From a virus (taxonomy: Duplodnaviria; Caudoviricetes): 64,000 nucleotides of DNA. The first letter of the stretch is position 1. Every line of letters begins with the position of its first letter. The stretch lies in the IMG/VR virus record IMGVR_UViG_3300049009_000874, positions 64,001 through 128,000 of that record. One strand, given 5' to 3'. Both the position numbers and the translations under genes were made by a program. Below the pieces are notes generated by a model. That model saw only the letters and a program-made list of their open reading frames with translations, did not search any database and was not told the origin of the DNA. Shown here piece after piece: positions 2,004 through 62,591 of the stretch.

Positions 2004-2528
2004 ATGATAAGATTTTCCGAATGGATGAAGATGAGGGAGTCCAGCCCGACGACCAGACTGAAGACTCAGGTCGCCCTAGGTTTGGCTCCGCCCACAGCCA
2101 GCATATTCAGCAGGTCGACCCCGCCCCCATGGCAGGTCGAAAGGCTTACGAAGGCTTTGAAGAAAAGCCACAAAAAAAAGAAACGCAAGCGCAAAAAGAA
2201 GAAATCGATGTCGGAGGGTTCGAAGCCGATGCCAATCCGCGGTGATTTCGCCGCGTTCATTTCCTCGGTGGAGTCTTTGGCGAAGGATCTCCTGGAACTC
2301 AAGACGCTGAAAAAGAAGAAGGATTCGGAGAGAAAGATCAAGTCGATCATGAAGAAGCATGGGGTCGAAGTCGATGGCGACTCGGACGAAAAGAAGGGCG
2401 ATGAGCTGGACTTGGAGAAAAACAAGGATGACGGCGAGGAAATTTCGGACAAGAAAGATAAAGACGGCGACAAGGATGGAAAATCCTCGGATTCCAAGGT
2501 CAAGACGCCAAAACGTTCGGGCAAGTGA
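2004..2528 (+). CDS. Putative head-internal polybasic protein
   Basis: N-term MIRFSEWMKMRE, KKSHKKKKRKRKKKK tract, K/D-rich tail; ATAGATA at 1990-1996. Confidence 0.7.
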   Translation: MIRFSEWMKMRESSPTTRLKTQVALGLAPPTASIFSRSTPPPWQVERLTKALKKSHKKKKRKRKKKKSMSEGSKPMPIRGDFAAFISSVESLAKDLLELKTLKKKKDSERKIKSIMKKHGVEVDGDSDEKKGDELDLEKNKDDGEEISDKKDKDGDKDGKSSDSKVKTPKRSGK

Positions 2529-2564
2529 GTTTGATTTTTTCTTCGCGGCGCATTAAAATAAGTC

Positions 2565-2966
2565 ATGGAGAAAAATCTCAAATCTATGACGGCAATGCAG
2601 AGGAAGGGCTTGAACATTTGTTTCGACCCGACCCAAAGAACCCATGTGGTCGCCGTTTTCCTTGATACCGACAACCAGAAGAACAAGTTGGTCAGCATAC
2701 CCTGCGTAGGCGTCACCGTCAACGGATACGCCTATGACTTCACCACCGACAGCTATGTCGTGGAATGCGTCGATTGGCTTGTTCTCGGGTTCATCGAAGC
2801 TTCTTGCCACATCAGAATCAACCAAAGCTACGACATCAAGATACCCATTTCCAACGATTGCTGTGAAAGACTGCTCAGCAAGCCACAGAGAAGGGAATTG
2901 AGGTCTTTCGCGAGGAGCAGGGGTTATGATGGTCTGCGGGTGGAATTCCTGCAAACGGTGTCCTGA
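2565..2966 (+). CDS. Hypothetical protein
   Basis: 133 aa ORF coupled by TGATG to next gene. Confidence 0.65.
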   Translation: MEKNLKSMTAMQRKGLNICFDPTQRTHVVAVFLDTDNQKNKLVSIPCVGVTVNGYAYDFTTDSYVVECVDWLVLGFIEASCHIRINQSYDIKIPISNDCCERLLSKPQRRELRSFARSRGYDGLRVEFLQTVS

Positions 2967-3400
2967 TGAGCCAAAGAAAGCCTTCGGATGATGATTTCCA
3001 TATGGGCATAGCATTCATGACCGCGAGCTTTTCGGATCATTTCAAGGCTGCGTTGCTTGTGGACCTCATGGGGAACATGCATGTCGGATTGGAGAAGCCG
3101 CCCCGGCAGGTAGCCCTTATGGAAAAACACATGTTGGATCCAGCCTTGAGCCTCTTGTCCTCCATGAGGGGTGGAGACCAAGTCGGAAGCCTATATCTCA
3201 CATACACGCCGTCTTACGATTGCTCCTTGATGATGGCGAATTATGCCGTCAAGAGGATCGTCTACCACGAAAGCGAGCCGTTGGACGATAAATCGGAGAA
3301 TATGTTCGCCAATTCCAGCATCGAGCTGAGAAAACACCAAGGAAACATGGGCTGGATCAAAGACCAAATTTTTTTGTTGCGATCCAGAGATATATTTTGA
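2966..3400 (+). CDS. dCMP deaminase-like protein, catalytic motifs degenerate
   Basis: SDDDFHMGIA N-helix, LYLTYTPSYDC (normally PCxxC), VKRIVY; no HAE motif. Confidence 0.7.
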   Translation: MSQRKPSDDDFHMGIAFMTASFSDHFKAALLVDLMGNMHVGLEKPPRQVALMEKHMLDPALSLLSSMRGGDQVGSLYLTYTPSYDCSLMMANYAVKRIVYHESEPLDDKSENMFANSSIELRKHQGNMGWIKDQIFLLRSRDIF

Positions 3401-3422
3401 CGCCCGGGATGATAAATAGTTC

Positions 3423-4175
3423 ATGGCATGTACATCAAACACATCAGGTTGCGTGGATCAATACAACTGCTTTGGCGGTTCCTGCCCTGATTTCAAAATA
3501 AGAAGGAACGACACCAAGCCCGAGTTGAAGGTCAAGATCCAGGATTGCGACGGGTCGCTAGACTTCACGGACCTCGTTCTCGAGGCTAGCATGTGGGCTA
3601 ACGGAAAACTCAAGTCGTCTATGTCCGACTCGATAGATTACCTTTCGCTGGCTGACAACATAGGGTTCAATCAGATCATGATAGGTGACGTCATCATCAT
3701 CAGCAGACCAAGACAGACCGAGCATTTGCTGGTCGTCGCCTTTGACGAGGACAACCGATACGTCAATGTGCATAGGGGATATCATGGCACGACCCCGCAG
3801 GCTTGGGCTAAGGGTCAGCAGCTCAAGATAATCAAGTTCATGAACGCGCAGGCGAACACAGAAATGGTTCTGCAGGACATATTGAACTTGGACGGGACTA
3901 CCACCAAGGACGTCCTGGTTGACAGCTATCTAGTATACCCGTGGAAGAACAACGACACGTGCTTGCCCGGATGCTACTTCCTGGAGTTCAAGCTCATGAA
4001 GATGGTCGCTCCCTTCAGGGTCGAGGCTGCGTCGGAAACACCGTCGTTCTCGGATCCTAGCCTCGTGGATTACCATTGCGGTCTGCCGGCTAGCATCGAG
4101 TGGATCAGGAGGTTTCCCGTGGATTCCGAAGGTTATTCCATAAAGATATACGACAGCCCAACATCGGAGATATGA
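3423..4175 (+). CDS. Putative virion structural protein (BppU-like Ig domain)
   Basis: IRRNDTKPELKVKIQD...LDFT and YPW..NDT..PG.Y.LEF patterns; ATAAATA at 3412-3418. Confidence 0.5.
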   Translation: MACTSNTSGCVDQYNCFGGSCPDFKIRRNDTKPELKVKIQDCDGSLDFTDLVLEASMWANGKLKSSMSDSIDYLSLADNIGFNQIMIGDVIIISRPRQTEHLLVVAFDEDNRYVNVHRGYHGTTPQAWAKGQQLKIIKFMNAQANTEMVLQDILNLDGTTTKDVLVDSYLVYPWKNNDTCLPGCYFLEFKLMKMVAPFRVEAASETPSFSDPSLVDYHCGLPASIEWIRRFPVDSEGYSIKIYDSPTSEI

Positions 4176-4261
4176 TTTTGATTTGGAAAAGATCATAGAT
4201 AAGTCTTTAAAATAAAAAGAACTTAGTCTTATATGTGTGAATTCAGACAAGGAACAACTTA

Positions 4262-4828
4262 ATGCATTTTCAAGGCAATAATTTTCGCAAGAGAGAAGAC
4301 AAGGATTTTTTGAAGCCGGGAGAAATGAGGACCAACTTCCAGATAAGGGTACCTCAGGTCAGGGTGATCAAGGATGACCAGCAGCTTGGAGTCATGTCGA
4401 CAGACAAGGCTCAGGCTATGGCGGAGGAGATCGGAATGGACCTCGTGGAGGTGGTGCCGACCGTCTCGCCCCCAATCTGCAAGATCATGGACTACGGCAA
4501 GTTCAGGTATGAGAAAAAGATAAAAGATAAGGAGTCGGCTCGAAAGCAGAGGGAGTCCAAGGTTCAATACAAGGAGATCAGGCTTCGCCCAGCCATAGCC
4601 CAGAATGACATGGAGACAAAGGCGAACATGGCGAAGAAGTTCCTGTCCGAAGGCTACAAGGTCCAGTTCATGCTCCAGTTCAGGGGCGGAAGGGAAATGT
4701 CGCACAAGGAGAACGGGATGAACGTGATGCAGAAAATCGTCGAGATCATGGGCGATCAAGTGTCCGTGGAAACGCAGCCAAGGTTTGAAGGAAACAAGAT
4801 AGTTTGTTGTGTCATTGCAAAGGTTTGA
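4262..4828 (+). CDS. infC: Translation initiation factor IF-3
   Basis: QIRVPQVRVI..QLGVM, DLVEV, PPICKIMDYGKFRYE, KEIRLRP, FRGGRE. Confidence 0.97.
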   Translation: MHFQGNNFRKREDKDFLKPGEMRTNFQIRVPQVRVIKDDQQLGVMSTDKAQAMAEEIGMDLVEVVPTVSPPICKIMDYGKFRYEKKIKDKESARKQRESKVQYKEIRLRPAIAQNDMETKANMAKKFLSEGYKVQFMLQFRGGREMSHKENGMNVMQKIVEIMGDQVSVETQPRFEGNKIVCCVIAKV

Positions 4829-6050
4829 CGAACAGATGGCTCAAAACCAAGATTTTAACATATCGCAGTTCTTCGAGGAATCCGTCAGGAGGATAGGATT
4901 GAGGTGTCCCGTCAAGAAAATTGGGCGAAAGTTCGCAAGGAAGATGTCCGCCTTGCCAGACGAGTTCCTGGAGTCTTGCCTTGGTCAGTTCGGCAAAAAG
5001 ATAAAGTCGTTCCTCAGGTCGATAGACATAGATCACCCGGACATGCCCAATTGCTATGATGGTTTTTTCCGAGATGACGGCGAGTTCGCCTCTTTCTTTT
5101 CCGAACTTGTGGACCATGTCAGGCTGTCGGCGAAAACCAAAAACTCGATGATGCTCGGCTACATTGGCGAATCCGCGGAAAAGCACATAATAGACAAGCA
5201 CAAAGCTGCGATTCACATGGATGTCCCGGAAAACAACAGGTGCAACGTAAGGCTCGTCAGGGACGAGGTGCTGAGGGGCGACATAAGAAGCAAGAAGAAG
5301 ATGCAGGTCATAGACCTCGACAGCGTCTACAAGAAGGGGTTAGGTTTCTACGAGAGCCACCCAGACAACTTCCTCAGCCACATGAGGTTCGACCTGTCGC
5401 TGGAGTCCGAGATATCGAAGCTTGAGGTCAAGGCTAGGAGATACGTGGAGATGGGATGCTCCGCGATGGCTGACGAGATAAACTCCAGCGTGGACTGCTA
5501 CAGGGAATACACCAAACAGACCTATTTCGGATTCAACCGCATCACGATGTCGGTCGCTTCCATCATACTCGCCAAGAGTCTCGGGTATGAAGCCAAGGTG
5601 GATCGTTGCCCGTTGTCCGGCGCGGAGACCTACGCGATCCGTGTTGGCAGCGGCTATTTCGGGGACTACCGTTTCGATCCTTCCAATTCCGAAAGCGGAT
5701 CCGAGGGGCATTACCCGTACGAGCCGAAGATTTACCCCATCGACTATTTCTCCGACATGATGACCGATGACACCCGGAGGGTTATCGGCATCTTGGATAA
5801 ATTCCACGATGCCGGGAAAAAGCCAATATTCGATTTCTTCGGGGTCATAGTTCCGTCGATTCGGTTCCCTTCGGTCCTGCATGAAGGCTCGTATTCTTTT
5901 TTGAACACGGACGGATTCCTGAGCGCGCACTACGACCTTGGCAGATGCGTGTCCGATTTCAACCGAAGCCTCGTGAAGAACAAAATTTTCAAGCCAATTA
6001 TAGTGGCGGAAAAAGACCATAAATGTTATTTTATCACTTACTGGATTTGA
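4809..6050 (+). CDS. Hypothetical protein
   Basis: 413 aa ORF filling the space between infC and next gene; start uncertain. Confidence 0.75.
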   Translation: MSLQRFDEQMAQNQDFNISQFFEESVRRIGLRCPVKKIGRKFARKMSALPDEFLESCLGQFGKKIKSFLRSIDIDHPDMPNCYDGFFRDDGEFASFFSELVDHVRLSAKTKNSMMLGYIGESAEKHIIDKHKAAIHMDVPENNRCNVRLVRDEVLRGDIRSKKKMQVIDLDSVYKKGLGFYESHPDNFLSHMRFDLSLESEISKLEVKARRYVEMGCSAMADEINSSVDCYREYTKQTYFGFNRITMSVASIILAKSLGYEAKVDRCPLSGAETYAIRVGSGYFGDYRFDPSNSESGSEGHYPYEPKIYPIDYFSDMMTDDTRRVIGILDKFHDAGKKPIFDFFGVIVPSIRFPSVLHEGSYSFLNTDGFLSAHYDLGRCVSDFNRSLVKNKIFKPIIVAEKDHKCYFITYWI

Positions 6051-6059
6051 GGTGTTTTT

Positions 6060-6380: not shown

Positions 6381-6389
6381 GGGATTAAA

Positions 6390-6728: not shown

Positions 6729-6738
6729 ATGATAAAAG

Positions 6739-7776: not shown

Positions 7777-7805
7777 TTTCCAAACATACATATTAAAGGT
7801 GAAAC

Positions 7806-8009
7806 ATGAACAAAATAGTAGAAAACAAGTTATTCGTTCCGGCTGTCTTGGCTGTCGTGTCTTTGTTGTTCTTCCTGCTCTGCAACAAGGTGATGGTCGA
7901 AAAGGTTGCTGACAGGGTCATACAAAAGCTCCAGAGGGATTATGCCCCATCTCCATTCGCCCCTGGGTTTGACCCAGACAAGATAGACTCGAACAGATTC
8001 AAGAAATGA
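7806..8009 (+). CDS. Small membrane protein
   Basis: Single TM, AAGGTG RBS, ATACATA upstream. Confidence 0.65.
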   Translation: MNKIVENKLFVPAVLAVVSLLFFLLCNKVMVEKVADRVIQKLQRDYAPSPFAPGFDPDKIDSNRFKK

Positions 8010-8352
8010 CCCTGAAAGACTTGAGTACCATCGGCTGCGTGTGTTCGATGTCCGGGCTTCCCATGAACCCGAATTCGACCATCTGACCTTTTTCTGGCTT
8101 TTTCGGCAACCTTCTGTACTGGTCGTAAGTGCAGAATATCTTGGATTTGTCCTCGAATTGGATCACTATTGGGTTCGTGTTGTACTTGATCATGTGTATC
8201 TTTGATTTCTTGATTATCATCGGCATGTCAACGTCGATTTTCGGCATGAAAGGAATGTATTCCTTGACCCAGTCAAAGTTTTCGGGAAAGAACAGATTAT
8301 GGTCCATCGATAGCTCTTTTATCTTCAGGAATCTTTCGAACTTGGTTTTCAT
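7999..8352 (-). CDS. Hypothetical protein with capsid-targeting-like N-terminus
   Basis: MKTKFERFLKIKE; ATAGATA 5 nt before ATG. Confidence 0.7.
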   Translation of the reverse strand: MKTKFERFLKIKELSMDHNLFFPENFDWVKEYIPFMPKIDVDMPMIIKKSKIHMIKYNTNPIVIQFEDKSKIFCTYDQYRRLPKKPEKGQMVEFGFMGSPDIEHTQPMVLKSFRVIS

Positions 8353-8372
8353 AAAAATATCTATGGGTCAAC

Positions 8373-9261: not shown

Positions 9262-9269
9262 TATAAATC

Positions 9270-9485: not shown

Positions 9486-10211
9486 ATGAGCGTAAACAAC
9501 CCGTTGGACAATACCAGATCAGAATTGACGGTGTCACTCAAGAATTACAGTGACGAGCAGATATCCATAATCATAGTCCACAAGGACAGACCGGAATACC
9601 TCAACCTGTGCCTCCAGAGCATATGCGTCACGTCCTTCAATTCGAACTACGAGATCATCGTGGTCGACAACGGAAGCGACAAGGAATCGCAGTCGTTCCT
9701 CGATGACGTCGAAGGCACGGTAAAGGTCATAAGGAACGAAAAGAACCTGTACTGGTCTGCCGCCTGCAACAAGGGCGCGAACGCCGCGGACAAGAACTCC
9801 AAGTACCTCATTTTCATGCATTGCGACATCGTCATCACGAACCCTTCGTGGCTTGACCTTCTCCTGAACGTTTCCGAATCGACATCGTCAGGGTTTATAG
9901 GTCTCGACACTCAGAACTACACGGTGGGCAACCAGGATGTCGGATTCATAACCGACCACATGATAATGATGACCAGGGACTGCTGGAGCGACATAGGACC
10001 TTGGCCAGAAGAGCTGCCGCAGATAGGCACAAGCTTCGTCATGACGATAAAATCCCAATCCAAGGGTCACAAGCCGCAGGTCATGAAGACCCCGATCCTC
10101 CATCACTACAAGATATTCAGCCTCGGCATAAACGAATACGAAAAACTTCAGGAAGAGGCTGTGTCCATACTGCCCCGCCTCGTAAGCCAGACCCAGTCAA
10201 GACCGGTCTAG
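9486..10211 (+). CDS. Glycosyltransferase family 2
   Basis: ISIIIVH, YEIIVVDNGS, N.Y.SAACNKG, FMHCD. Confidence 0.88.
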   Translation: MSVNNPLDNTRSELTVSLKNYSDEQISIIIVHKDRPEYLNLCLQSICVTSFNSNYEIIVVDNGSDKESQSFLDDVEGTVKVIRNEKNLYWSAACNKGANAADKNSKYLIFMHCDIVITNPSWLDLLLNVSESTSSGFIGLDTQNYTVGNQDVGFITDHMIMMTRDCWSDIGPWPEELPQIGTSFVMTIKSQSKGHKPQVMKTPILHHYKIFSLGINEYEKLQEEAVSILPRLVSQTQSRPV

Positions 10212-10690
10212 TTGGGTATCTTTTTTATGAATTCGTGCCATTTCGGATGCTCGAATTTCGTGATCTTGTTTTTGGCGTAGTGCTGCGCGTAAGCCATGCA
10301 GAAAAGTTCAAGGGGGTTCTCGTCTCGCAGATCCTTGTTCTTCTTCATGGAATCTTTGGCTATCTTGTTCCATTCCTTCCTCATGCCCGGATCGACCTTG
10401 TATTCCCAAACCATATGGGCTATCTCGTGCAGCGTGGTGAACTCCCTCCCGTAGTTCCATGGCGCCGCAACCACTATCTTCCTCTTGTGTATGGTTCCTA
10501 TGTGCTTCTTGTCGCCTTCGATGGTGTTGCCGTTGGTGTAGTTGATCTCGAACCCTCGGACTAGGTCTTTGTGGCTTTTCGGCAGCTTGTTCAGGGTCTT
10601 CTTTATGTCTTTTCTGGGAACGGTCTCGCAGTCGCACCTTTCCATGAAAGATTTGAAATTAAGTACATTGTGTCTTGTGATGTCATGCAT
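10208..10690 (-). CDS. Zincin-like metallopeptidase domain protein with capsid-targeting-like peptide
   Basis: TLHEIAH (HExxH), downstream ELFC..YAQHY; NFKSFME near N-terminus. Confidence 0.7.
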   Translation of the reverse strand: MHDITRHNVLNFKSFMERCDCETVPRKDIKKTLNKLPKSHKDLVRGFEINYTNGNTIEGDKKHIGTIHKRKIVVAAPWNYGREFTTLHEIAHMVWEYKVDPGMRKEWNKIAKDSMKKNKDLRDENPLELFCMAYAQHYAKNKITKFEHPKWHEFIKKIPN

Positions 10691-10741
10691 TTATGTCAAC
10701 TCCGCTGATATATAGAATCAGACAATCAATATTTAACCAGG

Positions 10742-18625: not shown

Positions 18626-19348
18626 ATGTGGTTTTTCACCGCCGACCTTCACCTGAATCACAACAACATAATAAAGTACTGCGAACGACCGTTCATGAAC
18701 ATTCTGGAGACTGGTCTGATGCAGATGGTCAAGTCCAAGATCATACCCGTTAACGAAGTGGCGATCAGCGACGAGTCGTCCGAGAAAATGACCAACTACA
18801 TCATTGATTCCATAAACCAAGTCGTTTCGGCAAATGACAACCTCGTCATTGCCGGTGATTTCTGCCACACGAGTAGTTCGGAAAGGGCTTCGGAGATAGC
18901 AAGGCTTCGAGCGATGATAAACTGCAAAAACGTATACCTCATAATTGGCAACCACGACGACAGGAACGCGATGTCCAAGAGCTTCACGTGCTTTGACCAA
19001 TATATGTTCAACGTAAACGGGCAGAACGTGTTCGTCTGCCACTATCCGTGTCGATCTTGGAATAAATCGTCTCGAGGTTCGTGGATGTTGTACGGTCATG
19101 TCCATGGCGGTTTTTCTCGAGAGGATTCCCTCGGGTTTTCGGAGAACGATGAGAGAACGTTGTTTTCTGGGTTCAAGGACATAGTCGGGGACGACGTCGT
19201 GTGCGCCAAGTTGGTCGAGGTCGCTAGGAAGTCGATGCCGCGAAGGCTCACCCTTGATATCGGCGTCGACAACAGGCGGGACGGGTTTAGGTTCGGGGCT
19301 CCGTGGAGTTTCGACGATATTCGCAAATATATGTCTTTATTGTCTTGA
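18626..19348 (+). CDS. Calcineurin-like metallophosphoesterase
   Basis: DLH, GDF, GNHD, CHYP, YGHVH, DIGVD. Confidence 0.9.
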   Translation: MWFFTADLHLNHNNIIKYCERPFMNILETGLMQMVKSKIIPVNEVAISDESSEKMTNYIIDSINQVVSANDNLVIAGDFCHTSSSERASEIARLRAMINCKNVYLIIGNHDDRNAMSKSFTCFDQYMFNVNGQNVFVCHYPCRSWNKSSRGSWMLYGHVHGGFSREDSLGFSENDERTLFSGFKDIVGDDVVCAKLVEVARKSMPRRLTLDIGVDNRRDGFRFGAPWSFDDIRKYMSLLS

Positions 19349-22769: not shown

Positions 22770-22797
22770 AAGGAGCGTTTAAAAGCGCTCCTTTTTT
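22770..22797 (+). terminator. Rho-independent terminator
   Basis: AAGGAGCG..CGCTCCTT plus T-tract. Confidence 0.8.
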
Positions 22798-22866
22798 GTT
22801 TGAATATAGCCGATGTTCTTGGCGGTTCGACCATCGAGTTTTGTTGCGGCAAAGCATATATATGTC

Positions 22867-23289
22867 ATGCGGAATATTTCGTTTAAGGACTGGATGTTGT
22901 TGCAGGAGGGGAAGACTTCTGGAAAGACCGTCCTGTATCCGATGGGATACGGCGGCATAGGTCTCTACCCATTGCAGACATATCTACCAGGTTCAGCCGA
23001 TGCCATACTTTACATATCCATAGATGACAGAGTCTACAAAAATGGCGATGGAGCCCCGTTTGACATAAGCCATCTTCCTGGACCGAAATGCTGGAAAAAC
23101 CCGAATTCCGGAACAAAAGCCCCGTTCGACATACGCCACATACCCGGTCCGGAGCCATACAAGAACCACAATGGGGCTGGAACCAAGGCTCCGTTCACGA
23201 TAAAGCACATCAATGGACCTGAGCCGCACAATAACCACAATGACGCCGAGGATGGGAGTCCTTTCCCCATAAAACATCTCAAAAAATAA
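22867..23289 (+). CDS. Repeat protein with capsid-targeting-like N-terminus
   Basis: MRNISFKDWMLLQEG; four PF.I.H[LI](.GP) repeats; ATATATA 4 nt before ATG. Confidence 0.75.
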   Translation: MRNISFKDWMLLQEGKTSGKTVLYPMGYGGIGLYPLQTYLPGSADAILYISIDDRVYKNGDGAPFDISHLPGPKCWKNPNSGTKAPFDIRHIPGPEPYKNHNGAGTKAPFTIKHINGPEPHNNHNDAEDGSPFPIKHLKK

Positions 23290-32113: not shown

Positions 32114-33418
32114 ATGTCAAAAGTAAAAAACGTGTTTCACTGTGATTTCTGCGAGAAGAAAAGCGACGCCAACAACGAAAAGATCGTAATAGAGAGCGCG
32201 CCGACGTTAAGGGTGAGAAACGGCAAGCCGATAGGCTCGAAATCGTACATCTGCAACGACTGCATAGCGATGATCCACGAGACCGTGAGTCAGGAGGACT
32301 TCGGGAAGCCAGGAAAGAAACCACGTGTCGACACGGCGGATCGACCCATCTTGTCCGTTGATCCAAGGGACATAGTAAAGCATCTCGACCTCCACATAGT
32401 CGGGCAGGACAACGCGAAGAAGAAGTTGGCTATATCCGTCGCGAACCATTACAAGAGGATAAACCCTCGGATCATCACGAAGAAGCTTCCGAAGGGTATG
32501 GAGGATGTCAGAATTGAGAAATCTAACATACTAATGATCGGTCCGACAGGTTGCGGCAAGACCCTTTTGGCTAAGACGTTGGCGTCACATCTCGATGTCC
32601 CTTTTGCGATAGGAGACGCGACAGTCCTGACTCAAGCTGGCTATGTAGGCGAGGATGTCGAAAACCTCATAGTCAAGCTCCTCCACCAGACGAATTTCGA
32701 TGTCGCCAAGGCTGAGCGGGGAATAGTCTACATAGATGAGGTCGACAAGATAGCGAAGACCTCGAAAAACATGTCGATAACCAGAGACGTGAGCGGAGAA
32801 GGGGTGCAGCAGTCGCTCCTGAAGATTCTCGAGGGCACGGTTTGCAACGTGCCGCCACAGGGCGGTCGAAAGCACCCGGAGCAGAAGTTCATACAGGTCG
32901 ACACCTCAAATATATTGTTCATATGCGGAGGCACCTTTACCGGGATACAGAACATAGTTTCTCGGAGGATTGGAGGCGGAAGCATCGGCTTTAACGGCAA
33001 TGACCACAAGAATTATTCAGAAACTGACATACTTAACTCGATTATTGACGAGGATATAATCGAGTTCGGAATGATACCCGAGTTTGTCGGAAGGCTTCCG
33101 GTACATGTTGCCGTGAGCCCGATGGACGAGAAGGCTCTTGTTTCCGTGCTTATGTGCCCTAAGAACGCGATACTCAAGCAGTACCAGAAAATATTGCTCT
33201 GCGACAACGTAGACTTGAATTTCTCGGATGGGGCTGTAAGGGAAATGGCCAGAGTCGCAATCAAGAAGGGAACTGGGGCAAGGGCTCTTAGGTCGGTGGT
33301 CGAATCGGTGATGACGGACATAATGTTCACGGCGTCAGACCACGCTGGGAAAAAGATAACAGTAGACGAAAAAACAGTCAAGAAGGTTTTCGATGACACA
33401 AACTACACAGCAGCCTGA
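32114..33418 (+). CDS. clpX: ATP-dependent Clp protease ATPase ClpX
   Basis: CDFC..ICNDC Zn domain, [33 protein letters not shown] loop, TGARALR. Confidence 0.97.
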
Positions 33419-34792: not shown

Positions 34793-35710
34793 ATGGTTAA
34801 TTTCTCCGAAAGGTTGGAGTTCGTTCATAGTTTCAATCATAGATTCTTCTACCATGTAGATTTCGAGAAAAGAAGAAAAGTAAAGACGATAGTGTCCGAC
34901 ATACCAGACAAGGGCAAGTTGGACGACGAAAGGGTCAAGGTCGCCAGCCTAAGGGTTGGCAACAAAAGCCCTGAGATGCGACCATGCTACGAAGAACCGC
35001 TCCTCACGAAAGACCAGGAATACCATTTGTTCCGAAAGATGAACTATTTCAAGTTCAAGCTCAAGAAGATGAAGGCTAGGATGCCAATAAAGCCATCGTT
35101 GAAGCATGTCGAGAAGATGGAGCTTTTGATAAAGGAAATATCTTTTTTGAGAAACCAAATAGCCAGCAGCAATTTCCGACTGGCTACGCACATATTGAAG
35201 ACCGAGTACCGTGGTTATGTGGACTCGATAGAGGCATGCATTTCGAACGCCTATATGGATGTAATAAAGAGCGTCGATTACTTCAACTACACGAAGGGGT
35301 TCAAGTTCTCAACCTATTGCGTCTGGGTACTCAAGAAAAACTTTTTCAGGTCGGCTAAGCTCAGAAGCATGAAGAAGCACGACGTTTTTTGCCTGGACGA
35401 GCTGCCGGAAGATGGCGTGGACGGCTTGAACAAACTCGACAACAACACTGAACTGCATCAAAGGGAGAACGAGTTGCTCGTGAAAAAGATAATAGACCAG
35501 ACAAAGAAAAGCATCAGGACCGTCGACGTGGAAAGGCAAATAATGATAATCGAACATTATTATGGAATAAACGGCAAACAAAGGAAGAACCTCCATGAGA
35601 TAAGCTGTATCCTCAACATAACGAAGGAAAGGGTGCGGCAACTCAAGGAGAAGTTCCTCAAGGAAATGCGCAACATAGTCGAACTAATGGGGTGTAGGGA
35701 TGTCATATAA
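34793..35710 (+). CDS. RNA polymerase sigma-70 family factor
   Basis: LLTKDQE (r1.2), NFRLA, FNYTKGFKFSTY (r2), LHEIS..LNITKERVRQL (r4). Confidence 0.92.
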   Translation: MVNFSERLEFVHSFNHRFFYHVDFEKRRKVKTIVSDIPDKGKLDDERVKVASLRVGNKSPEMRPCYEEPLLTKDQEYHLFRKMNYFKFKLKKMKARMPIKPSLKHVEKMELLIKEISFLRNQIASSNFRLATHILKTEYRGYVDSIEACISNAYMDVIKSVDYFNYTKGFKFSTYCVWVLKKNFFRSAKLRSMKKHDVFCLDELPEDGVDGLNKLDNNTELHQRENELLVKKIIDQTKKSIRTVDVERQIMIIEHYYGINGKQRKNLHEISCILNITKERVRQLKEKFLKEMRNIVELMGCRDVI

Positions 35711-50610: not shown

Positions 50611-50728
50611 GGACTTCCCGTTCCTTTTTCGACTCGAACGCAATATTCGTCGAATCTCATGTATGTCGCCCTTATTTGTTTCCGACAACATATATACATT
50701 TGCGTAAATCTTTTAGCACGGTGACAAA

Positions 50729-51124
50729 ATGGAATTCAAGAGTTTTTTAGAGTACGACATATCGAACGCCATCAAGAACATAGCCAAAACGTTCCGCTAC
50801 GGAACCTACTGCGGTCCGAACAAGACCGGGGATATAGTGTCCAAGCCCTGCAACGTGCACGACAGCGGCGATCCCCTGAAACCGCCAAAGGACAAGCTTG
50901 ATTCGCTTTGCATGAGCCATGACGTCGACTACTGCAAGTGCGGCGACGAATGGACCGCCGGACTATTGGGAAACAAGGGATCGGAATGCAGCCGGGAGGC
51001 GGACAAGAAGTTTATCGGCGACATACGCCAGAACATTGATTCCATGAGCCCCAAGGAGAAATTCGTAGCGAACCTCATATTGGCTTATTTCAGGATGCAC
51101 GGAAACCTGCAGAAAATCATCTAA
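50729..51124 (+). CDS. Phospholipase A2-like protein with capsid-targeting-like N-terminus
   Basis: YGTYCGP Ca-loop, DKLDSLCMSHDVDY catalytic HD, ADKKF; MEFKSFLE. Confidence 0.8.
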   Translation: MEFKSFLEYDISNAIKNIAKTFRYGTYCGPNKTGDIVSKPCNVHDSGDPLKPPKDKLDSLCMSHDVDYCKCGDEWTAGLLGNKGSECSREADKKFIGDIRQNIDSMSPKEKFVANLILAYFRMHGNLQKII

Positions 51125-53269: not shown

Positions 53270-53656
53270 TTACTTGAGGTTTTTGAGCTTGTAAATGGTT
53301 TGGTAGGTCAAAGCCATAATCTCGTCGAGTATGTTGTGGAGGTGGGTGTCGTCTTGGTCGAGTCTTTTCCTTCCATCCTTGACGCTGTCGGCGAAACCTT
53401 CCATGTATTCCAGTATGTCCTTGGACTCGAGGATGCAAGAGTTATAGCCGGAAATGATGCCGTACTGACCCTGGTACGTCTCCACGAAGGTGTCCGCGAG
53501 ACCAAGGATCCCATCGTAGAAAGAGCCAAGAGCATTGTGCTCCGCGTAGCTCTTGGTCTGAAGGTGAGCCACGTGAGCCACGTTTCTGGCTTCGAAAAAC
53601 TTTGCCACAAGGTCTTTGACCTTGCTTCCCGACCTGAACTCGTTGATGCTTTTCAT
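53270..53656 (-). CDS. Ferritin-like DUF5856-type protein
   Basis: HVAHLQT.SYAEH.AL..FYD...D.FVE.YQG, L.NI.DE...YKL..L; ATACATA upstream. Confidence 0.8.
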   Translation of the reverse strand: MKSINEFRSGSKVKDLVAKFFEARNVAHVAHLQTKSYAEHNALGSFYDGILGLADTFVETYQGQYGIISGYNSCILESKDILEYMEGFADSVKDGRKRLDQDDTHLHNILDEIMALTYQTIYKLKNLK

Positions 53657-53721
53657 GTTGATTTTTCCTCGGTTTGGATTTAATGTATGTATTCGTCCAC
53701 GAATTTTTTTTAGGGGCAAAC

Positions 53722-54825
53722 ATGAACTGGATAGCGCCAATATTGACCGTTGTTGGCTTGGGCGTCGGATTTTGGGCTGTGGTGAGGTACATAGTCCTTT
53801 TCGACCTAAGGGTCGACAACAACACTTTCAGGACGATATACGAGTTGATCGAGAAGGAGGGGCAGTTCGTCATCGAGGAGGAGTTCTTCTCGGAGAAAAG
53901 GCATCCCGTGGTCTACAAGTCCATATGCTTCATGGAAGGAGTGCCGTGGTTCTACATCGCTCACTCCGAGAGGCTCTTGCAAGCCGGCTTCCAGGGCAAA
54001 GACCTTGTCACATCCATAACCTGCTTCAGGTGGAACCACTCGAAAATCAAGCGTTTCCTGTCCGAAAAACTGAAGTCCATGCAGCTCTCCACGTTCGGAG
54101 TCCCGGTCAGGGTCGCTTCGCCATGGCAGACAGACAAGATCGGCTCGATAAAGACCGCCGACAATCCAGTCGTCGACGAGTCTCTGTGGCTTGATTTCTG
54201 CGAGGAGGTCGGGGAGGTGGCAAGGGGAGTATTGCCGAAGACCGGGGCGATACTCTACGGCGACCCCGGCAACGGAAAGACTTCTCTGGTCAAGTATCTC
54301 GCGGTGAAATACCAGATGCCCATAACGATAATAACGTTCGTGCCGGAATTCACGAACATGGACATCATGTTCATGTTCTCGCAGATAGGAAACAACTGCA
54401 TCGTGCTTCTGGAGGATTTCGACAACTACTTCGACAAGAGAAGGTGCATAATAGGCGAGAGCGGGCAGGGCGGCAACAACATGGGCATAAAATTCACATT
54501 CGATTCTATACTCAATTGCCTGGACGGGGTCTACAACAACTATGAGGGCGTCGTCTTCATCATGACCGCCAACGACATAGGCAAGATAGACGACTCGCTC
54601 AAGAACAGACCCAGCAGATTCAAGTACGTGAGGAACTTCTCCAACCCGTCGCCAGTCGTGAGGGAGAATCTCATAGGGGAATGGTCTCGGCATTTCGGCG
54701 GGTTGAACCTGGACCAGATCATGAGGGTGAGGGAATGCAAGACCAACGGCATGACGGTCAACGAAGCCAAGTCGAAGATCAATTTCGAGGCGGTCCAAGA
54801 CCGTGAGGTCACGAGTGAGACCTAG
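53722..54825 (+). CDS. Membrane-anchored BCS1-like AAA ATPase
   Basis: N-terminal TM; GDPGNGKTS, LLEDFD, LNCLDG, MTAN, RPSRF. Confidence 0.85.
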   Translation: MNWIAPILTVVGLGVGFWAVVRYIVLFDLRVDNNTFRTIYELIEKEGQFVIEEEFFSEKRHPVVYKSICFMEGVPWFYIAHSERLLQAGFQGKDLVTSITCFRWNHSKIKRFLSEKLKSMQLSTFGVPVRVASPWQTDKIGSIKTADNPVVDESLWLDFCEEVGEVARGVLPKTGAILYGDPGNGKTSLVKYLAVKYQMPITIITFVPEFTNMDIMFMFSQIGNNCIVLLEDFDNYFDKRRCIIGESGQGGNNMGIKFTFDSILNCLDGVYNNYEGVVFIMTANDIGKIDDSLKNRPSRFKYVRNFSNPSPVVRENLIGEWSRHFGGLNLDQIMRVRECKTNGMTVNEAKSKINFEAVQDREVTSET

Positions 54826-56621
54826 CGGATCGTCCTTTCCTTTCGGCGGACGAAACTCTCGTACGTGTACATGTTCTCGTCAGGGCTAGCGCTCTTGCTT
54901 GTTTTAGCCGGCGCTTGACGCTTCTGTTCTTTCCCGGACTTGTCGCCGGAAGCTGCACCAGCGACCGCCCCTCCTATAGCCCCGCCGGTGGCGGCTGAGT
55001 GAACGATGATTTTGGTGTCCAATTCGATGGGCTTGTCAGGATAGTATCCGATGTCTTTGAAATATTTTATTTGATCGAATTTCTCGATTTCTGCCGTTAG
55101 TCCTTGGTTTTTGAGTTCGGCGGATAGATCCGCGTATGCCTTGTCCATCATTTCCTTGACCGACAGTTGGGTGCCGTCGACATCGACAGGACTCATCGTC
55201 GCGTGAAACTTTATAAAGAGCGTGTCTGGTCCGAGCGTCTTGTCCACCAGCTTGTTGAGAGAGACGCTGGTGAATGTGTCCTTGAACACCAATTGGTCGC
55301 TTATCTTGTCGAGCGTTGCCTGCGATACGTCAGAATGAGAGAAAACCGCAGCCGGATCGGTTTTTCCGACCCAATCATCAGGAACTCCCTCTTGGTCGTG
55401 AGTGTGAGTTTTAGAATAAGCGAACGTCGAGGCTGGAACCTCGTCTCCTACTTCGCCACGCCAAGGTTTGTCTCCGGTGTTGCTGTAGTGGTTGTCTCCA
55501 TGAAAATGGTAATTTCCGTCCTCGTCCTTGACGTAATCCATCTTGAAGTTCTTGTGAATCCAATCCATGTCCTCCTGGGGGGCGACTTCTTTAACGGTGT
55601 TCGCAGCCATCGCGTCGACGCCCTTCCCTATGCCATATCCTATCAGAGAGCCCACGCCCATGAGGAACAGGACTTTTCCTATCTTTAATTTGTTCTCGTT
55701 TGCGAACTTGGACATGGACCCGAATGATTTGCTGATCAGGTTCTTGGTGTTCACCGTGTAATTGGTCGCCTTCCCGGCTACCGAACCGAGAGCCTTTCCG
55801 AATCTCTCCCCGGACCTTTTCAGTCCTCCCTCTTGAGCCCATTTCTTCGCCTGGCTCGCCTTTTTGCCTATGTACTCTTCACCCGATGACACCTTGTTCC
55901 CTAGCCAGTTCCCAGCCTGCTTCACCTTGTCTCCGAAATAACCCTCTTGGATGTCTCGCATGTCACTGTATGAAGAGAAGTCCGTCCAAGCGAGCTGCGG
56001 CGTTGGCGTCGCTGCGTTCTGGGTCGCCCCAGTCTGGTTCGCGCCCTTCATCGCGTTCTGGACCATCCCGGCGCCCTTCTGAGCCATTTCGACGCCCTTG
56101 TCGTAAACGTTGCCGGCGATCTTGTTGACTGGCTTCCTCACGAAGTACATGAGCGCAGCCATCGGCACGGCTGCGGGTCCGCCAACCATGCCAGCCAGAA
56201 GGATGGATGTAGCCAGGGGAATCGATATCCCGAGCTTTGTTGCGTAATCAGCGGCAGCCTTCCTAGCCTTTTCCATGTGCGGCGTGACTTTGCCGCTGTA
56301 TTTCTCCAGAGTGTCTTTCAAGAGGTTGTCGTTGTTTTTGTTTCTGGTATCGGAGTAACCTTGTTGCGCCCCGGAAACAGCGGACTTCCCGAAGTCCATG
56401 ATGCCCTTGCCGATCCCAGAAGCGACGGAGCCGATCCCAGAAGCGACGGACTTGGCTTTTTTCCACCAGTCGCCTATGGCTTCGTTGACCACCTCGTCGT
56501 TTCCGAATTTCGAGTATACCTCGAACAACAGCTCATCGCTCAATCCCACGCCTCTGCGCTCAAGATATGAAATGACATTGTTCCTTTTGATTCCGTTGAT
56601 ATGTTCCATGAATGTATTCAT
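54822..56621 (-). CDS. Large putative head-internal/ejected protein with hydrophobic hairpins
   Basis: MNTFMEH start, A/G/K-rich amphipathic helices, two hydrophobic segments, GGAIGGAVAG zipper; ATAGATA upstream. Confidence 0.6.
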   Translation of the reverse strand: MNTFMEHINGIKRNNVISYLERRGVGLSDELLFEVYSKFGNDEVVNEAIGDWWKKAKSVASGIGSVASGIGKGIMDFGKSAVSGAQQGYSDTRNKNNDNLLKDTLEKYSGKVTPHMEKARKAAADYATKLGISIPLATSILLAGMVGGPAAVPMAALMYFVRKPVNKIAGNVYDKGVEMAQKGAGMVQNAMKGANQTGATQNAATPTPQLAWTDFSSYSDMRDIQEGYFGDKVKQAGNWLGNKVSSGEEYIGKKASQAKKWAQEGGLKRSGERFGKALGSVAGKATNYTVNTKNLISKSFGSMSKFANENKLKIGKVLFLMGVGSLIGYGIGKGVDAMAANTVKEVAPQEDMDWIHKNFKMDYVKDEDGNYHFHGDNHYSNTGDKPWRGEVGDEVPASTFAYSKTHTHDQEGVPDDWVGKTDPAAVFSHSDVSQATLDKISDQLVFKDTFTSVSLNKLVDKTLGPDTLFIKFHATMSPVDVDGTQLSVKEMMDKAYADLSAELKNQGLTAEIEKFDQIKYFKDIGYYPDKPIELDTKIIVHSAATGGAIGGAVAGAASGDKSGKEQKRQAPAKTSKSASPDENMYTYESFVRRKERTIR

Positions 56622-56671
56622 TTTTTTTCCCAGTTAAACTGTTTTCGATATCTATGTTTCAATTATTGCAT

Positions 56672-57535: not shown

Positions 57536-57619
57536 TTGTATATATGTTCAAAAACAATAAATCCGTCACAATGAGAGATGTCTTTTGCTCGTCTTCTATT
57601 GTGATGTGGGGATAATGTC

Positions 57620-58324: not shown

Positions 58325-58327
58325 GGT

Positions 58328-58642
58328 TCATGTCCAGATGATGTAGTAGAGAAGAAAGAGCTGGAACATCAGAAGGGCGCTGCCGACGACGAACCCCTTG
58401 GTTGCGTTCGACAGGAATATCTTCTTCCATATCATCAGCGACAAGCAGGTCCCGAACATCTTCGCCGCCGAGAACAACGCTATCGATCCGTTGTCCATCT
58501 CTATCAGCCAAACCCCTATCGGATTCTTTTCCTCATTTATTATGACTTGCTGGAATCTTATTATCAGATATAGGTCTACCGCACCGATCGAAAGTATTGC
58601 GATGAAGACGAACCAGAAAAATGAGTTTTGTATCTTTGACAT
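58328..58642 (-). CDS. DUF5658-like membrane protein
   Basis: D.YL.....E.NP.G.WL..K motif with 3 TMs; GTAGATA 5 nt before ATG. Confidence 0.65.
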   Translation of the reverse strand: MSKIQNSFFWFVFIAILSIGAVDLYLIIRFQQVIINEEKNPIGVWLIEMDNGSIALFSAAKMFGTCLSLMIWKKIFLSNATKGFVVGSALLMFQLFLLYYIIWT

Positions 58643-58710
58643 TCTTTTATCTACTTTGAAAAACTAAATATTTGAGGTTAAAGTTTGATTTATATTTCGC
58701 AAGGCTGAAA

Positions 58711-59469: not shown

Positions 59470-59596
59470 CCTGAAAGTTTGTATCATTTAATTTTTAAAT
59501 GAAATGCGAAGGTGTTCGTATCGTCCGTTTTCGTTAACTGTGAAATTTTTGACAACCAAGCATCAAGGACGATGGCAACACACACCGAGGGATCGA

Positions 59597-60652
59597 ATGC
59601 GAAAACTGGTAGCTCTTGACCTCTTCTCCGGCGCCGGAGGACTGTCTTTCGGTCTAAAGTCAGCCGGCATAGACGTGGCTATGGCAAACGAGTTCAATTC
59701 CGTTTTCTGCGACACGTACGCAGCCAACCACCCAAGTACGAAACTATTGAGGTCGGACATACGTGAACTGAACTTCAGGGAAGAGATCCGAAACATCGGA
59801 CTGGAATCGGTCGACCTCGTGTGCGGGGGACCCCCATGCCAAGGGTTCAGCACGGTGGGCAAGAAGGACTTCCACGACGACAGGAATTCCCTGTTCCGTG
59901 AGTTCCTGCGAGCAGTAAGAGAGACAAGCCCGAGTTTCGTCGTGTTCGAGAACGTCTCCGGCTTCATGACGATGTACGGCGGCTTCGCCTACAGCGCCCT
60001 GACCTCCGAACTGGGGGCGATGGGATACAATCTGTCGTCGTCGGTCTTGGACATAGCCGACTACGGTCTCCCCCAAAGGAGGAAAAGGACCATCGTGCTA
60101 GGTTGCAGGGATTCCGTTTGCGGCATCCCGACTCCGACCCACGGCAAGCACCTCACCATCATGGACGCCATAGGAGACATGCCGCCGCTAGCCCCGGGGG
60201 AATCGAGCGACAAATACCTCTGCGCCCCGCAGAACGAATACCAATCCGAGATGAGGATCGGGACGCCCGGTCTGACCGAGCACAACGCCTCCGAGTATGG
60301 CGCGAAGATGGTCGAGATACTGGCGAGCATACCAGCCGGAGGGTCCTTGTCCGACCTCCCCGCCCATCTCAGACCGAATTCCGCTTTCGCCAACACCTAC
60401 GCGAGGCTCTTTCCTGACAAGCCGTCGCCGACCATAACGAGGAACTTCGGAACGCCGTCCTCATCCAGGTGTGTCCACCCTTACGGGAACAGGGCTCTTT
60501 CCACCAGGGAGGGAGCCAGGCTGCAGGGATTCCCCGACCGCTACATTTTCTGCGGCGGCAAGACGAGCAAGAACCTCCAGATAGGAAACTCCGTCCCCCC
60601 GATCCTCGGAAGGGTCATTGGGGAGGCTATAACATCTCATTGTTCGGTTTGA
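59597..60652 (+). CDS. DNA (cytosine-5) methyltransferase
   Basis: DLFSGAGG, GPPCQGFS, ENV, Q.R.R, RLQGFPD, IGNSV. Confidence 0.95.
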   Translation: MRKLVALDLFSGAGGLSFGLKSAGIDVAMANEFNSVFCDTYAANHPSTKLLRSDIRELNFREEIRNIGLESVDLVCGGPPCQGFSTVGKKDFHDDRNSLFREFLRAVRETSPSFVVFENVSGFMTMYGGFAYSALTSELGAMGYNLSSSVLDIADYGLPQRRKRTIVLGCRDSVCGIPTPTHGKHLTIMDAIGDMPPLAPGESSDKYLCAPQNEYQSEMRIGTPGLTEHNASEYGAKMVEILASIPAGGSLSDLPAHLRPNSAFANTYARLFPDKPSPTITRNFGTPSSSRCVHPYGNRALSTREGARLQGFPDRYIFCGGKTSKNLQIGNSVPPILGRVIGEAITSHCSV

Positions 60653-60713
60653 CATAGACGTACAATCTTTTTTAAATTAAAATGCCACGACCTTAATTCA
60701 AAGAGAGATTATC

Positions 60714-61841
60714 ATGGATCAAATCAGGGTCGTCAGTCTTTTCAGCGGGATCGGGGCTTTCGAGAAGGCTCTGACGAGGATAGGCAAGAAATACGAAGTC
60801 GTCAACTTCTGCGAGATCGACAAGAACGCCTCGAAGTCGTACTGCGCGATACATGGGGAGCCGGAGTCCAAGAACCTCGGCGACATCAGCAAGGTCGACG
60901 AGACGAAACTCCCGGACTTCGACCTCATGACTTGGGGATTCCCATGCCAAGACATATCCATAGCGGGAAAGCTGAAGGGCATCGAGGTAGGAACGAGGTC
61001 GGGTCTATACTACGAGGGTCTTCGCATACTGAACCACAAGAAGCCGACCTACAGCATCATAGAGAACGTCAAGAACCTGGTCGGATCGAAGTTCAAGGCT
61101 CAGTTCCAGCAGATACTGGACGACCTTGACGCCGCCGGCTACAATTCGTACTGGAAGGTGATGAACGCCAAGAACTACGGGATTCCGCAGAGCAGGGAGA
61201 GGGTCTTCATCGTGAGTGTCAGAAAGGACGCCGACAAGGGGTTCGAGTTCCCGAAGGAGTTCGACAGCGGAGTGAGGCTCAAGGATTTCATCGAGAAGGA
61301 CGTCCCAGCGAAGTACACCATCAATCCAGTCAAGACAGCCAAGTTCCTCGAGAGCATCGACGGGAAAAAGATAGAGGTCGGAGGCATCATGGTTTCGAGG
61401 AAGGGCGAGAAGTTCGACCGCGTCACGGAATGCGCCAACACCCTCATGGCTAGGGACTACAAGGGTTTCGGCAACCAGTCCATGAACGCCGTTCTGGAGT
61501 CCATACCGAACGAAATATCCGACAACTCGCTGATACAGCTCGGATGCCTCTCAGGAAGCAACTCGCAGGCGAACAGGGTGTACAGCACGGACGGCGTGTC
61601 TGCGACCCTGTGCGGCATCAGCGGGGGATGGGGAGCGAAGACGGGTCTCTACGTCGAGCAGACCAGGGTCAGGAGGCTTTGCCCCAAGGAATGCTTCAGG
61701 CTGATGGGTTTCGACGACGCCGACTACGAGAAGGTCGTAGCCGCCGGCATCGTAAGCGACACCCAGCTGTACAAGCAGGCTGGGAACAGCATCGTCGTCA
61801 ATGTTCTGGAATGCATATTCAAGAGCATTTTCGGAAATTGA
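60714..61841 (+). CDS. DNA (cytosine-5) methyltransferase, phage type
   Basis: SLFSGIG, GFPCQD, ENV, Q.RER, RLMGF, AGNSI; long variable region. Confidence 0.95.
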   Translation: MDQIRVVSLFSGIGAFEKALTRIGKKYEVVNFCEIDKNASKSYCAIHGEPESKNLGDISKVDETKLPDFDLMTWGFPCQDISIAGKLKGIEVGTRSGLYYEGLRILNHKKPTYSIIENVKNLVGSKFKAQFQQILDDLDAAGYNSYWKVMNAKNYGIPQSRERVFIVSVRKDADKGFEFPKEFDSGVRLKDFIEKDVPAKYTINPVKTAKFLESIDGKKIEVGGIMVSRKGEKFDRVTECANTLMARDYKGFGNQSMNAVLESIPNEISDNSLIQLGCLSGSNSQANRVYSTDGVSATLCGISGGWGAKTGLYVEQTRVRRLCPKECFRLMGFDDADYEKVVAAGIVSDTQLYKQAGNSIVVNVLECIFKSIFGN

Positions 61842-61877
61842 CAAGAGGTTCCAGATCCAAAAAACATACATATGTTC

Positions 61878-62591
61878 ATGGATTTCAAGCAATTCCTGTA
61901 TACCGAGTCCTCGAAGCCAGCCATGTTGGGCAAATACCGCATCACGTACATAGACTCCAATAAATTCAGGAAGAAATCACTTCTGAACGTCGAGTTCTGC
62001 ACCGCCGCGGTCCACGACGATTTCCCCAGACACATAAAGAAGGACGAGATATGGATTGACGACAGCATCAAGCCGAAGGAGATACCAACCATCCTCAAGG
62101 GTTTGTCTGTCAGGCTGTCGGAAATCGAGAATGGCGGGAAGAACCCGTACGAGAAGGGAATCGCCGCGGAGAAAAAAGAAAGGAACGAACACAGGGAAAA
62201 GCTGAAGAAGAAGAAGCACATGACCATAAAGGACTACAGCGGCGAAATCGAAGTGTATCTGGTCAGCGGCAAGGCTGTCAGGGACAACTACAAGACGGAT
62301 TTCTCGCAGGGGGGTCACGGCTACGTCTACGACTGGATACCGAAGAACGAGATATGGATAGAGGACGAGGAGAAGGACGAGATTGCTCCGATCCTTGCCC
62401 ACGAGTACATCGAGATGGTCCTCATGAAGGAGAGCGGCTGGAAGTATCCCAAAGCCCACGAGATGGCTTCCGACATAGAGCAGCAACTCAGGAAGAAAAA
62501 CCTGACGATGAAGGGGATCGACAAGGTTGTCAAGAACATATCGATACTTGTGCCGGAAGTAAACAAGCCAAGATCCAAGAGAAAAAGCTAA
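61878..62591 (+). CDS. Duplicated-domain putative metalloprotein with capsid-targeting-like N-terminus
   Basis: MDFKQFLYTE; two EIWI[DE]D repeats; HEYIE..AH; ATACATA 5 nt before ATG. Confidence 0.7.
   Translation: MDFKQFLYTESSKPAMLGKYRITYIDSNKFRKKSLLNVEFCTAAVHDDFPRHIKKDEIWIDDSIKPKEIPTILKGLSVRLSEIENGGKNPYEKGIAAEKKERNEHREKLKKKKHMTIKDYSGEIEVYLVSGKAVRDNYKTDFSQGGHGYVYDWIPKNEIWIEDEEKDEIAPILAHEYIEMVLMKESGWKYPKAHEMASDIEQQLRKKNLTMKGIDKVVKNISILVPEVNKPRSKRKS

Follow-up and report, generated by a model that had tools for sequence, protein, structure and literature searches.

The 64,000-nucleotide window analysed here corresponds to bases 64001-128000 of one 189,229-bp IMG/VR virus contig, on which frame-aware gene calling finds 225 genes (window coordinates above 64,000 denote contig sequence past the window end). 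Several otherwise unrelated proteins encoded in this window start with a common short peptide, hereafter the tag, whose core reads M-x(1-3)-F-[KR]-[EQD]-[WFY]-[LVFIM] followed by a Glu; about one in ten proteins of the contig begins in this way. The source is an uncultured huge phage represented by a fragment only: the contig is rated 39% complete by CheckV, so that the whole genome would be near 480 kb. It carries homologues of T4 UvsW, gp41, UvsX and dCMP deaminase, and a piece of a DnaE-type polymerase whose top match, at 49% identity, lies in LR756511.1, the 595-kb genome of another uncultured phage. LR756511.1, with 900 genes, served as the main relative for comparison, and 83 of the 225 contig proteins have a homologue in it. 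A 700-residue protein of the window has no match in the phage collection.

The first-pass annotation had assigned the shared N-terminus to eight genes of the window. All eight N-termini were found where it had placed them, and the signal is stronger than first claimed, although not every member was retained. Five genes are clearly tagged, with the first aromatic residue at position 3-6. Genes are named below by their start coordinate, with a minus sign for the minus strand, and scores in bits are those of a position matrix for the tag.

2004..2528, plus strand: polybasic 174-residue protein, tagged (MIRFSEWMKMRE...), isoelectric point (pI) 10.0, 48 Lys plus Arg residues, 19.0 bits.
7999..8352, minus strand: 117-residue tagged protein without assigned function (MKTKFERFLKIKE...), pI 9.3, 11.4 bits.
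22867..23289, plus strand: 140-residue tagged protein (MRNISFKDWMLLQE...), 17.6 bits.
50729..51124, plus strand: 131-residue phospholipase-A2-like tagged protein (MEFKSFLE...), with a readable YCGP loop and SHD-x-DYC motif.
61878..62591, plus strand: 237-residue HExxE protein, tagged (MDFKQFLYTE-SSKP...), with invariant H175, E176, E179 and H194.

Scores of 11-19 bits are reached by 2004, 8352-, 50729 and 61872/61878. In the 2004 gene the tag occupies roughly codons 1-12 (2004-2039), and the protein belongs to no Pfam family. The 22867 protein has three copies and one partial copy of an APF-x-I-x-H-[IL]-x-G-P repeat, with a unit of ~22 residues (APF-x-I-x-H-[IL]-x-G-P-E-P); a terminator-like GC-rich hairpin with a T-run is found just upstream of its gene, at about 22775-22800. 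The phospholipase A2 label given earlier to the 50729 protein is partly supported: a YCG loop and an HD dyad are visible in the sequence, but the Pfam matches to PF08398 (E 0.045) and PF00068 (E 0.071) are both under the curated cut-offs. This protein also matches phrog_11353 (4.8e-5), and its three homologues are all tagged. The HExxE protein belongs to a family with 57 homologues, on contigs of up to 303 kb. Its predicted model is of good quality (predicted local distance difference test, pLDDT, 90; predicted template-modelling score, pTM, 0.84), with the tag (residues 1-10) forming a separate helix of pLDDT about 50. A Foldseek search of the model matched no solved structure in the PDB, and a wide structural search retrieved small zincins for both halves, with Z of 5.5 at most. 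The body thus looks, in the model, like two tandem, much reduced zincin-like domains, and the metalloprotein label proposed for it earlier is kept in the form of this weak fold assignment.

The tag is far more frequent than expected. A loose regular expression for the core matches 31 of the 225 contig N-termini, as against 5.2 +/- 2.1 in shuffled N-termini, the comparison on which the first-pass annotation had staked the motif, and 4.3 in internal windows. A matrix trained on LR756511.1 alone, which had seen no contig sequence, scores 19 contig N-termini at 8 bits or more (0.59 expected from internal windows). The same expression finds 58 of the 900 genes in LR756511.1, where 14 +/- 3.6 are expected, and the enrichment survives the collapsing of paralogues. 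Tagged genes are spread across the whole contig, with an additional nine-gene tandem array past the window end, and total at least 24-28 on 189 kb and about 55 in LR756511.1. A logo of 70 tags from the two sequences, aligned at the first aromatic residue (position 0), shows Met at -3 or -2, Lys or Leu at -2 and Thr, Asn, Ser or Asp at -1; then F/Y (0), K/R (+1), E/Q/D (+2), W/F/Y (+3) and L/V/F/I/M (+4); and finally Glu enriched at +5, +7 and +8. Several of these preferences were not built into the regular expression.

The codons used at the conserved residues follow the bias of each genome, with TTC on the contig and TTT in LR756511.1, and Leu is written with at least six codons. Because the codons at tag positions vary with genome usage, the constraint acts on the peptide. 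The tag is also retained as an amino-acid pattern across families down to 45-55% identity.

The three remaining candidates of the first-pass annotation fared differently.

10208..10690, minus strand: 160-residue HExxH zincin-like protein, with the tag LNFKSFME after an 8-9-residue extension.
54822..56621, minus strand: 599-residue protein whose tag, MNTFMEH, is decayed (3.3 bits) and which contains Gly-rich stretches and a single segment of strong hydrophobicity.
53270..53656, minus strand: 128-residue DUF5856 / Dps-like (ferritin-like) protein, untagged (-2.5 bits).

In the HExxH protein the tag is shifted inward to about residues 10-18 (about 10640-10663), and no in-frame start precedes it. 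The family is very common in huge-phage metagenomes; of the 120 best homologues, 106 have the tag, which in almost every case sits at the true N-terminus, and three tagless relatives start right past the tag or at the domain. H88, E89 and H92 are invariant across 40 family sequences, which supports the zincin label in part; the protein has no Pfam family, and its model (pLDDT 80) only weakly resembles M34 peptidases, the top Foldseek match being the M34 Pro-Pro endopeptidase PPEP-3 (E 0.02, template-modelling score, TM, 0.52). The 599-residue protein keeps a decayed tag only; over the first 184 residues it shares 35% identity with a tagged 567-residue protein at window coordinate 65092. The ferritin-like protein, once counted as cargo, has to be removed: it matches PF19174 across the entire profile (positions 1-94 of 94, E 8.2e-22), phrog_858 (1.3e-26) and, by phmmer, T4 rI.-1, and is a homologue of T4 rI.-1 outside the tagged set.

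A frame-blind scan of all 1,112 ATG open reading frames (ORFs) of at least 40 residues in the six frames of the window returned few matches, among them 2004, 8352-, 22867, 50729 and 61878. The additional matches are an internal Met of the 2004 gene, opposite-strand ORFs at 18942 and 29004/29010 that both fall outside the gene calls, and a borderline partial match at 1187. The last corresponds to a 148-residue acidic protein (1187-1633, plus strand) that starts MQNEWLEEED, a tag-like sequence without the first aromatic residue that scores 7.8 bits with the independent matrix. Past the window, two minus-strand genes at window coordinates 116391 and 117107 would have perfect tags (MDSFREWLLLAE and MSGFRAWLESS) if an internal ATG were used instead of that of the longest ORF; one encodes an ankyrin-repeat protein and the other a weakly alpha/beta-hydrolase-like protein.

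What follows the tag varies widely. Compared with one another, the bodies of the tagged proteins show no similarity, the pair 54822/65092 being the sole exception, in agreement with the earlier statement that they are otherwise unrelated. The domains recognised in tagged contig proteins are a kinase, ankyrin repeats, an alpha/beta hydrolase (weak), GP88 and a 2-oxoglutarate oxygenase (the latter with a weak tag); most tagged proteins have no family in PHROGs or Pfam. Only 3 of 24 tagged proteins have an LR756511.1 homologue, compared with 83 of 225 overall; two of these three homologues are themselves tagged and the third, an AAA_33 kinase, starts exactly at the domain start. Likewise, tagless members of the HExxE and HExxH families begin just past the tag, and both structural models show the tag as a helix of low confidence, detached from the rest. 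The tagged proteins also have a higher pI than the remaining ones (median 8.2 vs 6.2, p 2e-4; contig alone 8.5 vs 6.8, p 0.09). By these comparisons the tagged proteins are hypervariable, basic and modular, and the tag is, as judged from sequences and models, a portable add-on dispensable for the fold of its cargo.

A second shared feature lies upstream. A TANATA element, reported by the first-pass annotation before each of its candidates, indeed occurs within 60 nt upstream of all eight start codons; it is located as follows before the tagged, shifted and decayed genes, and the window also encodes a sigma factor.

1991..1996, plus strand: TAGATA, ending 7 nt before ATG 2004.
8358..8363, minus strand: TAGATA, ending 5 nt before ATG 8352.
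10709..10714, minus strand: TATATA, 18 nt before ATG 10690 and followed by a GGAG Shine-Dalgarno site.
22857..22862, plus strand: TATATA, ending 4 nt before ATG 22867.
50691..50696, plus strand: TATATA, 32 nt before ATG 50729.
56649..56654, minus strand: TAGATA, 27 nt before ATG 56621.
61867..61872, plus strand: TACATA, ending 5 nt before ATG 61878.
34793..35710, plus strand: sigma-70-family factor of the phage (regions 2 and 4), which may read phage promoters.

TAGATAA, TATATAG and ATAGATA are the most enriched upstream 7-mers of the contig, where 59 of 225 genes have TANATA within 60 nt upstream (about 7 expected). Its association with the tag, already suspected, is confirmed in both genomes: TANATA precedes 10 of 11 tagged transcription-unit heads on the contig against 39 of 130 untagged ones (p 1e-4), and 39 of 53 tagged genes in LR756511.1 against 134 of 847 untagged ones (p 6e-19). 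The spacing differs as well. In LR756511.1 the element lies 3-9 nt before the ATG in 30 of 39 tagged but 42 of 134 untagged cases (p 6.5e-7), and on the contig in 5 of 11 tagged, including 2004, 8352-, 22867 and 61878, vs 7 of 48 untagged. The distance of 4-5 nt supports the start codons chosen at 22867 and 61878, and spacings of 3-9 nt, such as the 7 nt at 2004, leave no space for a Shine-Dalgarno site before most tagged genes. With TANATA so close to the ATG, many tagged messages may be leaderless or nearly so; the nine tagged array genes and the 10690- gene have ordinary Shine-Dalgarno leaders. TANATA also precedes the capsid and terminase genes of LR756511.1. The element resembles the T4 late promoter TATAAATA. 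This likeness and the sharing with head genes suggest that the tagged genes, preceded by this promoter-like element, may be late.

The closest known counterpart of the tag is the capsid targeting sequence (CTS) of T4, carried by IPI, IPII, IPIII and Alt and removed by the gp21 prohead protease (Mullaney and Black 1996; PMC9026906, PMC3012670). The first 10 residues of IPIII are enough for packaging, and mutagenesis assigned CTS residues 4 and 7 to targeting and residues 8 and 10 to processing (PMC9026906). When T4 genes were called with the same script as the contig and the resulting 234 N-termini were ranked with the huge-phage matrix, ipII came 3rd, ipI 5th and ipIII 6th, ranks whose chance probability we calculate to be about 1e-5. 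Columns 0, +3 and +4 of the tag correspond to CTS residues 4, 7 and 8, so that conserved positions of the tag are those defined by mutagenesis and the likeness to the CTS noted in the first-pass annotation is upheld.

The end of the tag may resemble the T4 cleavage site as well, gp21 cutting after L/I-x-E (PMC9026906). With tags defined by the core alone, a Glu is found at +5 to +9 in 50 of 65 tagged N-termini (77%) but in 356 of 1006 untagged ones (35%, p 5e-11), and a hydrophobic-x-Glu site in 75% vs 25% (p 4e-16); the strict form [LIVM]-x-E is present in only 37% of tags. Members of the HExxE and HExxH families have Ser, Ala or Asn after the Glu, then a linker of variable length and the conserved domain, an arrangement expected of a removable propeptide.

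The relatives provide the T4-type head genes. LR756511.1 encodes a gp21-type Peptidase_S77 (S77) protein (95.9 bits; 525953-526621, minus strand) within a module in T4 order: terminase (gp17-like), portal (gp20-like), protease, a gene at the scaffold position (gp22; 525018-525950, minus strand) and a gp23-type capsid protein (290 bits), which reads L-F-N-E/I where the maturation site of T4 gp23 (L-T-E/A) aligns. Three tagged genes (MLTWTEFLE, MDFKEWYFINE and MEFREWFRSAE) lie downstream beside the capsid gene. A T4-type capsid was detected in five of five near-complete genomes with the tagged HExxH family (three at least 90% complete, one 85%, and LR756511.1), and S77 in two of the three genomes of at least 90% completeness as well as in LR756511.1. 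Where a contig matches the HExxE family only distantly and at the C-terminus, the S77 result was mixed and is little informative. In genomes without T4-type head genes the tag stays at background: none in phiKZ (0.59 expected), none in 0305phi8-36 (0.21) and one in a 424-kb IMG/VR genome (0.84). T4 and the cultured T4-type jumbo phage XacN1 have a handful of tags each, about five in XacN1.

The sequences thus show directly that the tag exists, is enriched, is selected as a peptide, is modular, matches the T4 signal and is linked to a promoter-like element, and that relatives have T4-type head genes. We consider it rather likely that the tag serves as a capsid-targeting propeptide of T4 type, on a much larger scale than in T4. 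Since a tag that closely matches the T4 head signal stands on about one tenth of the proteins, the phage probably packs, clips and injects with its DNA a large, fast-changing set of enzymes. The steps of docking, cleavage, packaging and injection, which we infer, would proceed as follows. The first 8-12 residues or so would form a short amphipathic helix with aromatics at i and i+3 and an aliphatic residue at i+4. This helix would dock the protein to the scaffolding core during prohead building, and a gp21-type (Peptidase_S77) prohead protease would then cleave after the Glu behind the helix. The mature, mostly basic protein would be kept in the head together with the DNA and ejected into the next host. 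The tagged genes would be switched on alongside the head genes via the promoter-like TANATA element, often abutting the start codon.

Like the T4 CTS, the tag lies at the extreme N-terminus, places an aliphatic residue and then Glu behind two aromatics spaced three residues apart, and is borne by unrelated, fast-evolving, mostly basic proteins. It differs in that it is carried by dozens of proteins, vs three to five in T4, favours Trp at the second aromatic position, and marks a cargo that takes in zincin-like, phospholipase-A2-like, kinase, hydrolase and ankyrin proteins. It is also tightly tied to TANATA, often leaving no leader, and is known from sequence alone. The ip loci of T-even phages likewise combine a conserved tag with hypervariable cargo, which has been read as an arms race with host defences (PMC9026906); the ip genes are clustered in few loci, whereas the tagged genes of the contig are dispersed apart from the one nine-gene array. 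In phiKZ-like giants, many head-internal proteins are cut after Glu by a gp21-related protease (phiKZ gp175, SPN3US gp245), their propeptides are thought to target the prohead, and the heads hold about 50 protein species (PMC5694885, PMC10052503). These propeptides are nonetheless different, being long (often >100 residues) and devoid of a short common tag, and the phiKZ head genes are not detectably T4-like.

Several observations weigh against a capsid-targeting role. A gp21-like protease is found in near-complete relatives but not closer to home: the 39%-complete contig has no capsid, portal, terminase or prohead-protease gene, and its two closest IMG/VR relatives by DnaE (69% identity), which are fragments too, have neither S77 nor any head gene. 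The link to the protease therefore rests on relatives at 49% DnaE identity or less, and one near-complete genome with the tagged family and a T4-type capsid has no detectable S77. Conversely, the S77-positive LR756508.1 (484 kb) and an IMG/VR genome of 405 kb (G005) lack the exact tag and show variant N-termini only, namely MRFKxLLxE, in a set of roughly 250-270-residue proteins, and MKFxxYxxWLNE; the exact tag is thus clade-specific, and these variants may represent one address in forms particular to each lineage. In XacN1, the chitinase and the lipase carried in the virion have no tag, and the tagged ORF270 is not mentioned in the main text of the virion-proteome paper. The register of the Glu differs as well, lying mostly at +5 (W-L-E), +7 or +8 from the first aromatic residue vs +6 in T4. 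In T4 itself, the top match to the huge-phage matrix (12.7 bits) is hypothetical gp61.1 (NC_000866.4, 18966-19130, 54 residues, MKTFKEFIKE), which is not annotated as a virion protein in the T4 record. A good tag therefore need not mean packaging, and gp61.1 may either bear an overlooked CTS or caution against taking the tag by itself as proof of packaging. Finally, the clade encodes ClpX, and LR756511.1 also ClpP, so that another reader of N-terminal tags is available.

Five other explanations were weighed, the first two of which involve further genes of the window.

53683..54825, plus strand: AAA ATPase with a hydrophobic N-terminus, between the DUF5856 gene and the gene of the 599-residue protein.
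32114..33418, plus strand: ClpX-like AAA+ unfoldase with a zinc-finger N-terminus.

The tag could be a docking helix for a late hub outside the head interior, such as the tail or baseplate, a membrane-bound assembly site or a cytoplasmic complex. Co-regulation with structural genes would suit any late hub, the AAA ATPase with its hydrophobic N-terminus is among the candidates and could serve a membrane-bound site, and we count in favour of this explanation the speculation by Iyer et al. (2021) that BCS1-like ATPases move proteins ending in heads (PMC7824862). Four points favour the head: the tag specifically matches the signal of the T4 head core, Glu is enriched behind it, the cargo is basic, and tagged genes lie by capsid, scaffold and protease genes. 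We regard a different hub as unlikely.

Slightly less likely still is that the tag is a recognition signal for the phage ClpX-like unfoldase, leading to timed degradation with ClpP or to unfolding or remodelling alone, with no capsid address. ClpX reads short N-terminal motifs, LR756511.1 has a ClpX 48% identical to that of the window together with ClpP (584618-585130), and some tagged genes are near ClpX or ClpP genes. T4, however, has no ClpXP, yet its proven CTS fits the same matrix, and the three tagged genes adjoining the LR756511.1 capsid gene have the same promoter element. A degron on about 10% of the proteome, late enzymes included, would moreover be hard to explain, and the acidic residue following the basic one is not known to fit the published ClpX N-motifs.

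We find it improbable that the tag is the by-product of a nucleic-acid signal, either an initially transcribed region or a signal for the translation of leaderless mRNA. The more frequent abutment of the promoter-like element on the ATG of tagged genes would fit such a signal, but the genome-specific codon usage at the conserved residues makes it unlikely; the Shine-Dalgarno leaders of the nine array genes and 10690-, and the persistence of the amino-acid pattern in diverged families, also speak against it. A leader peptide for a dedicated modifying enzyme, for example a radical-SAM maturase, is very improbable: no Radical_SAM domain was found on the contig or in the whole of LR756511.1, in a search whose control was positive in 14 of 14 genomes. 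We judge it equally improbable that the tag arose by chance or is what remains of a single ancient family of paralogues. The nine tandem paralogues do inflate the raw counts and 54822 and 65092 are paralogous, but the enrichment holds without paralogues, the bodies are dissimilar with different folds and domains, and tagless homologues exist.

Returning to capsid targeting, the mechanism would be that of T4, and the scale, the cargo and the promoter coupling would be new. In a full-text literature search, treatments of the CTS were confined to T4, the ip loci of T-even phages, T4 engineering and, as an analogy, phiKZ-like phages; among the papers listed for jumbo, huge, mega- or giant phages none contained the term, and the terms 'internal protein' and 'prohead protease' are absent from a large comparative jumbo-phage paper. 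A broader generalisation, which we advance as possible without leaning towards it, is that huge phages whose capsids are of T4 type address dozens of unrelated proteins per genome, enzymes as well as binding proteins, to the head by one short N-terminal helix, that these proteins are clipped after Glu and delivered with the DNA, that they form a TANATA regulon with leaderless or near-leaderless messages, and that the AAA+ unfoldases of the phage itself possibly aid their loading.

Three to five proteins enter the T4 head by way of a tag of 10 residues, and of these IPI at least inactivates a restriction enzyme of the host. Should huge phages apply this address to 6-12% of their genes, much of their unexplained coding capacity may be first-strike cargo, delivered before any phage gene is expressed, which would help to explain their large genome size. 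Hundreds of orphan genes would become testable as anti-defence or host-takeover factors, and the proteins that such phages package could be predicted from metagenomes by the tag alone. Together with the T4 precedent, the tag also suggests a handle for loading foreign proteins into large capsids.

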